Shown here: one piece after another, positions 38,708 through 44,893 of the stretch
Layout: every line of letters starts with the position of its first letter
Numbering within the stretch: position 1 is the stretch's first letter
The notes under the pieces: model-generated
The model's database searches: none
Seen by the model: only the letters and a program-made list of their open reading frames with translations
What the model was told of the DNA's origin: nothing
Made by a program: the position numbers and the translations under genes
Assembly: GCA_963776275.1 (NCBI GenBank)
Contig: CAVZMI010000015.1
Coordinates: 110,984-174,983, forward strand
Length of the DNA stretch: 64,000 bases
Reading direction: 5' to 3'
DNA from: Ignavibacteriota bacterium
GTDB lineage: Bacteria > Bacteroidota > Ignavibacteria > UBA10030 > CAVZMI01

Positions 38708-38852
38708 TGTACCGGGGGAGGGATTCTCCGCCGCAATGGACCGAGCTCTGGAGGCGGATCAGCCTCACCGATTTATAATGCGTGGCTGAGAATACATACC
38801 ATCCCTTCGGGATGGTAGTACTGCTCGCTCCGCTTGCTGCCCACGACCTACG
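38708..38852 (-). pseudogene. tRNA-Met 3'-half duplicate (att-like) with two palindromic insertions
   Basis: tgtaccgggggagggattc|63 nt|gaa|47 nt|cccacgacctacg matches 44154-44188. Confidence 0.8.
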
Positions 38853-39357
38853 TATTTCAATACTAAGCACAAGACGATGCGGGAAAAATCTAATGCTAAA
38901 TCACAGCCGAGTTTTTATTCACAAGTCAATCTTCACAATTCACTATTTGTTTGTACCGGGGGAGCGCCATGTAACGTCGGGAAGAATTCTCACTCCCTCT
39001 TTTTTGCTCGAAACACCCACTTTTTGTTGGGAAGAGTCATCTTTTCGGATTAATGACAAATCATTCCTACCTGTTCGTCTTCTAGAACTGCCAAGCGGAT
39101 ACATTCACGGGAATCTGCCTTGTATCTTGTCTTTAAACTTGTTACAGCAATACAACAAAGGTTCAGAAAAATCAATGCTTATAAACCTGTAAATGAAACA
39201 ATTAACCAATTAAAACTAAAATCTAAGCCCGGGTTACGGCGGGTCGCTTAATTATTTTTTAAAAAACTATTGACATTAACTCATTTTTATACTAATTATG
39301 GTTAATAAAATTAACTTGTTTATATTTGTATCAATATTTATTTTTAAACATAAAACA

Positions 39358-43854: not shown

Positions 43855-44155
43855 GCAATTTCACGCCAAGCAATTGGTACTTTACAAACATTATAACTAT
43901 GGAAGAAAATTTTTTCATTAGAGATAGTTCACATATCGGATACTGTTCATTTAACCAAAATACAAAATCCCCCAAAACATCTGGAGGAATTTTCACTCAA
44001 TTCTTCAATCTTCAATCTTCCCGCCTACGCTAAAGCTTCGGCGGGTGAACCGGGCATTATCAATCTTCATTCTTTCCGTCCAAAAAACATGGCGGATTTC
44101 GTTCAGCCCGCCTATGGCGGGCTTCACTCAACAATCTTAAATCTTCAATCATTTG

Positions 44156-44229
44156 TACCGGGGGAGGGATTCGAACCCACGACCTACGGATTATGATTCC
44201 GACGCTCTAACCAGCTGAGCTACCCCGGC
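44156..44229 (-). tRNA. tRNA-Met (CAT), probably elongator; CCA not encoded
   Basis: GCCGGGGTAGCTCAGCTGGTTAGAGCGTCGGAATCATAATCCGTAGGTCGTGGGTTCGAATCCCTCCCCCGGTA cloverleaf. Confidence 0.93.
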
Positions 44230-44420
44230 ATTGAATTGCGATGATGAAAAATGGCGTCATTCAACGACGCCATTCATATGACCGGAAAAAAGATAAGGAA
44301 AATATACTCGAAAAGCAATGGAGAAATGCCGTTCGAAAACAACTCCGGCTCTCGTGCATCCTCAAGGACAGAGGCAATTCAGAGGAGATGGTCAAAGGCT
44401 GTCTTTGCTCTCAATAAATG

Positions 44421-44704
44421 TTCCGGGGGAGGGATTCTCCGCCACGACTGATGATACGAGAAGGCGGATGCCTGCCCGCCGCTCCGCTCTTGCAGGCGGG
44501 CGCCTCTGGCGCAGAACACTGGGCTGCCTTCTGCAGCCCAGTACTGCTCGTCCCTCAAGGGACTTGCTGCCCACGACCGGAGTTTATCCCGCCGTTATTT
44601 GGCGGGAGATTATGATTCCGACCTGTCCCGATTGCTCTTGATCGGGACGCTCTAACCAGCTGCCTGCCCGCCGTGCTTCATCTTTTGGCGGGAGCTACCC
44701 CGGC
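44421..44704 (-). pseudogene. second tRNA-Met(CAT) copy interrupted by five palindromic insertions
   Basis: Six colinear blocks covering 70 of 74 nt of the 44156-44229 tRNA with one substitution. Confidence 0.85.
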
Positions 44705-44893
44705 GCCTACTTTTCAATATAAAAAATAAATCCTTCGGTTGCAATCTATCTATAGTCTGCCATCTCCACGTTGCCAAATACTCTATAGATAATACTGACA
44801 CACTATATGTCAAATAGAAAAATTGGTTCCTGGGCATTATAGGGTATCCGAAAACCGACATTATTAATTGATTCTAAATGCATATTTTCATTC

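Follow-up and report, generated by a model that had tools for sequence, protein, structure and literature searches.

A tRNA-Met gene copy split by five hairpin inserts in an Ignavibacteriota bacterium, probably a decaying duplicate colonised by position-specific mobile palindromes

The split tRNA-Met copy

The DNA analysed here (the window) is a stretch of 64,000 nucleotides (nt) from contig CAVZMI010000015.1 of the Ignavibacteriota bacterium assembly GCA_963776275.1, and it carries a tRNA-Met gene next to a second copy of the same gene that is cut into six pieces by five palindromic inserts. ARAGORN and Rfam find two tRNA genes in the window, one of which has the anticodon CAT (44155/44156-44229; Rfam RF00005, 66 bits). 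This gene, which is read on the minus strand like all the features of the locus described below, is one of the three CAT tRNAs of the genome and is probably the elongator tRNA-Met. The split copy is seen neither by ARAGORN nor by Rfam, even at E<=1, and at that threshold the interval 44230-44800 gave only sub-threshold chance matches (anti-hemB, Histone3, and a Brucella sRNA). A gap-tolerant alignment of the intact gene to 44421-44704 nevertheless resolved six collinear blocks of 12, 14, 15, 9, 3, and 17 bases. The first-pass annotation of this DNA, made from the letters alone, had placed an intact tRNA-Met gene beside a copy that keeps 70 tRNA bases in order, with a single substitution at acceptor position 72 and four bases lost, and our alignment agrees with it to the base: 69 of the 70 bases are identical to the intact gene, the sole substitution is a T to A change at position 72, and the lost bases are CGTA, from the 3' end of the anticodon stem and the variable loop. 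The five insert positions are also exactly those claimed there, and all of the inverted repeats that it named for the inserts are present.

Read in the tRNA sense, piece 1 (44693..44704) runs from the acceptor 5' strand to position 12 and is followed by insert A (30 nt, 44663..44692), which lies inside the D-stem at 12/13 and is delimited both by the alignment and by exact copies elsewhere in the genome. Piece 2 (44649..44662), with the D-loop and the D-stem 3' strand, is separated from piece 3 by insert B (26 nt, 44623..44648, from alignment and fold), between the D arm and the anticodon stem at 25/26. Piece 3 (44608..44622) is the anticodon arm with CAT intact, after which insert C (29 nt, 44579..44607, from alignment and fold) stands in place of CGTA at about positions 41-45. 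The 3' part of the variable loop and the T-stem 5' strand make up piece 4 (44570..44578), and insert D (53 nt, 44517..44569), defined by aligning and folding members of its family, occupies the junction of T-stem and T-loop (53/54). Piece 5 (44514..44516) is just the TTC of the T-loop, insert E (76 nt, 44438..44513) follows it at 56/57, and piece 6 (44421..44437) contains the 3' half of the T-loop, the T-stem, and the acceptor 3' strand with its A for T at 72; the six pieces and E were placed by the alignment. The boundaries are uncertain by 1 nt for A and by 3 nt for B because insert and exon begin with the same letters, and the end of E (GTCGTGG..GGA/GAATCC, the slash marking the insert boundary) is also T-arm-like, which results in a second, weaker alignment.

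In the tRNA sense, insert A reads CCCGCC-AAAAGATGAAGCAC-GGCGGG-CAGG. Insert B is the hairpin GTCCCGAT-8 nt-ATCGGGAC, insert C is the hairpin TCCCGCC-7 nt-GGCGGGA followed by the tail TAAACTCC, and insert D is a two-hairpin module with the invariant core CGAGCAGTACT. Insert E is composed of three modules, TGCGCC-AGA-GGCGC, an A-like CCCGCC-14 nt-GGCGGGCAGG, and TCCGCC..GGCGGA; the nested A-like element that had been noticed within E is real, as it shares with A the 13-nt word TGCCTGCCCGCCG. When folded as single strands, A, B, and C form one hairpin each. The folds of B (z -6.5), C (z -3.5), and D (z -5.8) stand out against shuffles, and those of A (z -1.8) and E (z -0.9) are unremarkable.

In what follows, G000 is the window's own genome, G001 a congener, G002 a genome of the same family and another genus, and L numbers denote contigs from genome and metagenome collections. 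The split copy and the intact gene are separated by a 191-nt spacer (44230..44420) that is 92.1% identical to G001 and in which we found neither an open reading frame (ORF) family nor a promoter-like site. The only promoter-like site detected, TTGCAA-17-TATATT (44716..44744), is a match to the consensus only and immediately precedes the split copy, within a block whose identity to G001 is 97.7%. Because this site is upstream of the split copy and there is none in the spacer, the split copy is probably transcribed as a leader of the working gene, as far as the sequence indicates. We found no sense-strand hairpin followed by a T run, and the RNA of the split copy folds with z -6.1 and -4.5 against shuffles. 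In one RNA run, contigs cover the conserved intact tRNA (44150-44232) only; the metagenome run shares were at most 0.15.

Insert families in tRNA gene copies

The genome of the window is a 38-contig assembly, 96.4% complete and with 5.3% contamination, and it contains a tmRNA. A chain search anchored on all of its 46 tRNA genes gave 33 chains, two of which were dropped as cross-matches between paralogous Thr genes, and the 31 kept lie beside 16 tRNA genes. These chains share insert sites and modules, with hairpin families recurring at 12/13, 25/26, 53/54, and 56/57. The insert positions recur across tRNA species and genomes, and the split tRNA-Met is one example of a lineage-wide phenomenon. 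The partial copies follow a tandem-duplication rule in 11 of 12 loci, with 5' pieces upstream and 3' pieces downstream, and breakpoints inside tRNA genes must therefore be frequent. The same modules are also found in truncated fragments that lack half of the tRNA.

Insert A is present in three exact copies in the genome, counting that of the split copy; the other two (30/30) are at C4:10-39 and C4:1120-1149, and one 28/30 copy is on contig C23. The stretch shared by the C4 copies and the tRNA copy stops at the insert boundaries, and the flanks are unrelated. Searching by the pattern CCGCCNNAAGRTGAAGCAYGGCGG, with the reversed pattern as a control, we found A in 49 of the 277 genomes of the order to which the window belongs, where it has 1-7 copies per genome, and 0 matches of the control. 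In the species-level genome collection the pattern is present in 64 stretches, labelled as Ignavibacteria, Ignavibacteriales or Ignavibacteriota, as generic Bacteroidota, or as a few Chitinophagales or Chlorobiaceae metagenome-assembled genomes, and among viral contigs it was found in 0 stretches. In 14 of 76 instances A falls precisely at tRNA position 12/13, with a single orientation throughout; the tRNA genes whose copies are hit are Met, Ile2-like, Asp, Val, Gly, and Trp. The remaining 62 instances have unrelated non-tRNA flanks. We examined 12 of the loci with A at 12/13: ten hold an intact gene for the same tRNA and two do not, and in 10/10 of the former the A-bearing copy is upstream on the same strand. 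Furthermore, a loop-independent pattern detected 17 CCGCC hairpins at 12/13 in 14 of the 277 genomes (control 0). Since its exact copies have unrelated flanks and it recurs at 12/13 across tRNAs and genomes, A is an element of low copy number that is currently mobile and strongly prefers a single spot in the D-stem. It is the youngest insert of the split copy.

The region in which the two other exact copies of A are found, C4:1-4000, consists of short ORFs in series, with a repeat (..TAACCAGCRGCTCAAGCTGACCGRATGAG plus a CCCGCC hairpin) behind each of them, and has the look of an integron-type cassette array; it is two of these repeats that contain the copies. No tyrosine recombinase or integrase was found on C4 and the arm pairing expected of an integron is not evident. 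Tandem arrays of 33-55-nt GC-rich units starting with CCTGCCCGCC, which is an arm of insert A, are present at C8:3460-3560, C20:91420-91520, and C33:5540-5600.

Families related to the other inserts are found in further tRNA gene copies. Five tandem tRNA-Gly(gcc) copies have the stem of B (GTCCCGAT/ATCGGGAC) at the same junction, there closed by a different loop, and in tRNA-Thr(cgt) copies the place of the anticodon arm is taken by B-related GTCCCG..CGGGAC/T hairpins. Among the 4249 hairpins of the genome, TCCCGAT (16) and TCCCGAC (13) are the commonest 7-bp stems; the overall excess is modest (587 hairpins on C23 versus 486 and 439 in two Markov shuffles), the hairpin signal lying in specific stems and not in totals. 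Insert C has homologues in L129, in L135, and in G001, where a 34-nt element is nested in it. D-type modules occupy 53/54 in copies of Met (two in G000 and one in G001), Lys, and Ile2-like tRNAs, and the five members that we aligned and folded all fold alike. The last module of E (TCCGCC..GGCGGA, immediately 5' of RAATCC) is seen again behind the T-loop TTC of Thr, Pro, Ser, and fMet copies, and E1, a 31-nt module of the G001 Met copy, recurs in the Pro and Ser copies of G000 and in another split tRNA-Met copy of the window (38709-38853). A dispersed composite repeat, CGACTCG-TCCCGAC-nnn-GTCGGGA-CTCGCTCAGCGA-AGCAGTACTTTAGTAC-AGGACAAG, is present at ~12 places of G000 (e.g. C11:56980-57070 and C38:34260-34340), and its second hairpin has the same base as the D-type module. 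At C23:438190-438420 and C5:58860-59680 (L189), an intact tRNA-Thr(tgt) and an intact tRNA-Thr(cgt) gene are each enclosed by a long GTCCCGA..TCGGGA hairpin: the gene lies in its loop, and the hairpin itself splits an older copy of the tRNA concerned.

With respect to enzymes, the genome has 15 GIY-YIG matches, 8 of them within 400 nt of a tRNA gene or of tRNA fragments, and 9 Y1_Tnp matches. The GIY-YIG proteins are stand-alone domains of 72-110 aa, and one ORF of 72 aa resembles UPF0213. A GIY-YIG ORF lies between a tRNA gene and its duplicated part at 8 places in the genome, which do not include the split-copy locus, and the window contig (C15) has no GIY-YIG match. At C10:40440-42070, four tandem 349-nt units follow an intact initiator-like tRNA, each unit consisting of a small GIY-YIG ORF and a nearly full tRNA-fMet copy in which bases 13-18 are replaced by TCCGCCgaaGGCGGA. 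On contig C28, the A-like arm CCTGCCCGCC abuts a ATTGCCACGAAC.. repeat 230 nt upstream of a Y1 gene, which we take as a lead only.

Filled and empty alleles in relatives

We searched 41 related genomes for the homologous locus and found it in one, the congener G001, which shares with G000 the intact gene, the spacer, and the split copy but carries another load of inserts. Its site A is empty, gctctaaccagctg and agctaccccggc being contiguous, and insert B is identical in the two species (26/26). Insert C of G001 holds the extra 34-nt hairpin element in its loop, both hairpins of D are swapped for other stems, and the first modules of E differ from those of G000 (E1 comes first). The mismatch G1:A72 is common to both species, and the split copy of G001 has a further acceptor mismatch, C3:A70. 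In G002, which is 100% complete, the intact gene is present with one base difference and the split copy is absent.

The alleles were also found in metagenomes. A 1580-nt contig from an independent peat metagenome run has the G001 form with site A empty, and a 197-nt contig from another run, which is possibly the window's own source sample, has the A-filled junction with 0 differences. A pattern scan of metagenomes for the junction of piece 3 and B returned 100 stretches, of which four are real (L108, L129, L135, and L174) and the other 96 were discarded as chance matches in unrelated GC-rich DNA. L174 is a G001-like allele, L129 and L135 have homologous B and C and an empty site A, and L108 has a different hairpin at site A. 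In L108:200-520, the slot that elsewhere is taken by the intact tRNA-Met holds an interrupted copy only, and we found no intact tRNA on its 3.5-kb contig. Filled and empty sites in relatives, which would be expected if the first-pass annotation was right in treating the inserts as DNA elements, exist therefore both for A and for the element nested in C. What was inserted is DNA, present in some alleles and missing from others, and it turns over quickly. Neutral divergence between G000 and G001 is ~8%, judged from 217 third codon positions of the nitroreductase gene next to the locus, at which identity is 92.2%; identity is 93.2% in the intergenic region upstream, and the alleles of the two genomes are at least six insertion, replacement or deletion events apart.

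The window contains two more copies of the same tRNA on the minus strand. A second, partial split copy (38709..38853), 5.4 kb downstream of the intact gene, consists of CGTAGGTCGTGGG, a D-type insert, TTC, E1, E2, and then GAATCCCTCCCCCGGTAC with the wild-type T72; its D and E inserts match the split-copy allele of G001 and not that of the nearby copy. A third fragment (38946..38957) corresponds to the 3' end only (CTCCCCCGGTAC). The homology with G001 ends exactly at the 3' side of the intact tRNA, and just downstream of this gene, at 44003-44152, four 17-nt AT-rich direct repeats (CTTCAATCTTCAATCTT) are interleaved with two CCCGCC..GGCGGG hairpins. We discarded the idea that the split copy is the att remnant of an integrase island, as it is full length and lies 191 nt from the gene; the genome has 7 tyrosine recombinase matches, none of them on the window contig. 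The 3' fragments at 38709-38957 could be island borders, although there is no integrase between them and the intact gene. The lack of a tRNA-Asp gene was likewise discarded as a real loss, because its only match (C25:1-59) is cut by the contig end. Fragments of tRNAs at contig ends (C12:151-171 and C25:31-52) suggest that these repeats break the assembly.

Origin of the inserts and relation to known systems

Taken together, we consider it probable that the split copy is a decaying duplicate that has been colonised at the DNA level by position-specific mobile palindromes. It would be a redundant copy of the neighbouring tRNA-CAT gene, no longer working as a tRNA and placed between a conserved promoter-like element and the working gene. 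Module families specific to the Ignavibacteria-type lineage would repeatedly reach the same positions in spare tRNA copies, their addresses being 12/13 (A type), 25/26 (B type, GTCCCG..CGGGAC), about 41-45, 53/54 (D type), and 56/57 (E type, TCCGCC..GGCGGA). As insertions into a single working gene would be lethal, only those into spare copies would survive, and spare copies would be abundant because tRNA genes are hot spots for partial tandem duplication, often beside small GIY-YIG genes. The modules may read the sequence or the single-stranded fold of the arms of the tRNA gene and enter it with no target duplication, in the manner of elements of the IS200/IS605 or REP (repetitive extragenic palindrome) type, with Y1/HUH transposases and small GIY-YIG nucleases as candidate enzymes. 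Position-targeted, active palindromic DNA elements were also the preferred option of the first-pass annotation, and the filled and empty alleles, the exact copies of A, the recurrence of A at the same tRNA position in other tRNAs and genomes, and the presence of GIY-YIG and HUH (Y1) genes all argue for it. More tentatively, it is possible, albeit doubtful, that Ignavibacteria-type bacteria have an undescribed mobile system aimed at tRNA genes, in which the modules would read folded single-stranded arms, each family with its own address (12/13, 25/26, 53/54 or 56/57), and would travel with fresh-tRNA cassettes, with or without GIY-YIG genes, into or beside the old gene; the split tRNA-Met would then be a landing pad that records five addresses. 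The two intact tRNA-Thr genes nested in a hairpin loop within an older copy speak for such a system.

Several observations weigh against colonisation of a decaying duplicate by mobile palindromes. Only A has exact copies elsewhere in the genome; for B, C, D, and E we found none of full length, the best partial matches being of 13-17 nt. Even A has only 1-7 copies per genome, unlike classic high-copy REPs, and no recurrent gene adjoins it, the largest cluster among the ORFs within 2 kb of 64 loci comprising 7 loci and looking unrelated. It had been suggested that GIY-YIG or HUH genes might be flanked by the same palindromes; both types of gene are indeed present in the genome, but the three Y1 loci inspected, out of 9, are flanked by other palindromes (e.g. 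ATTGCCACGAAC.. at C28). Moreover, over the 96 positions of the tRNA-derived pieces and B there is a single difference from G001, when ~7.6 would be expected at 8% divergence (p ~0.004 by a Poisson estimate), piece 1 matches the intact gene of its own species (GCCGGGG in G000 and G001, GGCGGGG in L129), and the D-type stems vary among loci yet remain paired. These last three features would also be given by selection on a structured RNA or DNA or by frequent conversion. This pattern of conservation weighs against pure neutrality, and structure-dependent mobility, conversion or selection could each account for it.

One way to explain such data without transposition of the modules, which we regard as unlikely, is that tRNA genes are cut (for example by GIY-YIG nucleases) and repaired from tRNA-derived sequences, so that conversion would spread the modules, fold-back (template-switch) synthesis would produce the stems, and the hairpin would shield the cut site. 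Consistent with this, E1 is in the T-loop context (GGTTC/../RAATCC) in 5/5 of the E1-like end-motif matches, with 1 further match unrelated, the D type has been seen at 53/54 only, B to E are unique sequences and not copies, and stems vary and are perfectly paired. The frequent breakpoints inside tRNA genes implied by the tandem-duplication rule (11/12 loci) and the GIY-YIG genes between tRNA genes and fragments point in the same direction, as does the phage GIY-YIG nuclease SegB, which is reported to drive segmental amplification at a tRNA locus (PMC13096335). However, 62 of the 76 instances of A have unrelated non-tRNA flanks, the C4 and tRNA copies of A have exactly its 30 nt in common and nothing of their flanks, which requires a homology-independent mechanism, and there is no GIY-YIG gene at the locus or on its contig. 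Selection for a structured RNA, that is, a long 5' leader or a tRNA-shaped hairpin scaffold for processing, stability or protein binding, could also have kept the split copy, and we find this quite improbable. The conserved promoter-like block upstream of the split copy and the lack of a promoter-like site in the spacer are in line with it, and so are the absence of a sense-strand hairpin followed by a T run, the conservation of pieces and B above neutral sites, the maintenance of pairing in stems that vary between loci, and the fold energies relative to shuffles. Nonetheless, the palindromes alone account for these energies, the split copy is absent from the complete genome G002, close relatives differ in content (one has A and the other lacks it, and D and E are partly replaced), the acceptor stem shows decay in both species, and the same modules are in truncated fragments that are unable to fold as a tRNA.

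Some archaeal tRNAs have introns at non-canonical positions, and the first-pass annotation had considered removal of the inserts at the RNA level as its second option, in which the product would be a second tRNA-Met. The insert positions may resemble those of the archaeal non-canonical introns, the acceptor strands and the anticodon arm are intact, and the genome has a gene for the RtcB ligase. RtcB is, however, common in bacteria (present in 6/10 control genomes), and a tRNA_int_endo search of the genome, the completeness of which is 96.4%, gave 0 matches, when the control search found the domain in 4 archaea. Removing the inserts restores no complete, pairable tRNA, as the anticodon stem and variable loop lack four bases and G1:A72 is mismatched, with C3:A70 added in G001; the intact gene is adjoining, at 191 nt, and the same inserts are found in fragments that lack half the tRNA. 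We thus judge splicing to be highly improbable. A group I intron was rejected as well, as the inserts are of 26-76 nt versus a core of at least 200 nt and there is no Rfam intron match at the gathering score or at E<=1. An assembly or binning artefact, the other concern raised from the letters, might be thought of in a 38-contig assembly with 5.3% contamination and a tRNA-Asp at a contig end, but it is hardly credible, since the architecture was assembled independently in G001, L174, L129/L135, and L108 and is also in contigs of two public runs, with different insert loads.

Returning to mobile palindromes, the inserts share several features with REP/REPIN sequences and their Y1 proteins (RAYT, TnpA-REP): they are short (20-40 nt) GC-rich palindromes with a conserved stem base, variable loops, and no visible target duplication, in a genome with Y1_Tnp genes. 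CGTC-tagged REPs are reported for Chlorobi and Bacteroidetes (PMC3733652), and B, which reads CGTC+CCGAT.., recalls them. Of the two unpaired end tags given there (GTAG or CGTC), A has neither, and in B the GTC of CGTC is paired; in tRNA contexts, the tRNA's own GTAG is 2 nt before A. Unlike REPs, which are present in tens to hundreds of copies, A has a low copy number, and none of the three Y1 genes inspected is flanked by these elements, which lie at fixed positions inside tRNA gene copies instead of after genes. In both copy number and flanking of Y1 genes, these elements therefore differ from members of a REPtron. Palindromes derived from IS200/IS605 elements ('peel and paste') offer a parallel in the lack of target duplication between filled and empty sites, in the fixed orientation with respect to the target strand, and in the hairpin ends, and a preference for foldable DNA (tRNA arms and cassette-array repeats) would fit single-strand targets. 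In contrast to them, the left flanks of the 76 instances of A have no single 4-5 nt target motif, and the modules are single hairpins without distinct left and right ends.

The elements that behave most alike are those of organelle genomes, namely the GC clusters of yeast mitochondria and the repetitive hairpin-forming elements of sponges (PMC2800124). These, too, are very small GC-rich hairpins, which have entered both intergenic DNA and genes for structural RNAs, nest, and turn over quickly; the present ones differ in being hosted by a free-living bacterium and in having fixed insertion positions within tRNA gene copies. For the duplications, the nearest counterpart would be the free-standing GIY-YIG nuclease SegB at the tRNA locus of phage T4, which is reported (PMC13096335 and PMC2988022) to have in common with this genome a GIY-YIG gene between tRNA genes and tandem-amplified segments, like the four units of C10. 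The GIY-YIG proteins found here differ from it in being chromosomal, UPF0213-type stand-alone domains, with none at the split-copy locus. The multi-intron and split tRNA genes of archaea are similar in having several non-canonical interruptions by short structured inserts, and the present case differs from them in being in a bacterium (with tmRNA), with no match to the splicing endonuclease, with an intact copy nearby, and with lost bases and pairing. In the main texts of the literature that we searched, we found no account of bacterial tRNA gene copies colonised by hairpins at fixed positions, and the only palindromes in the Melioribacter genome paper are those of CRISPR.

As to annotation, these genomes hide dozens of tRNA-derived fragments that are missed by tRNA finders and that break assemblies. 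Small palindromic repeats are ubiquitous in bacteria, and the present locus bears on how they choose their sites and on what moves those that have no dedicated transposase. With the uninterrupted gene next to the split copy, the target can be read to the base, and several families of elements, each with its own fixed address in a universally conserved sequence and structure, make target recognition directly testable.

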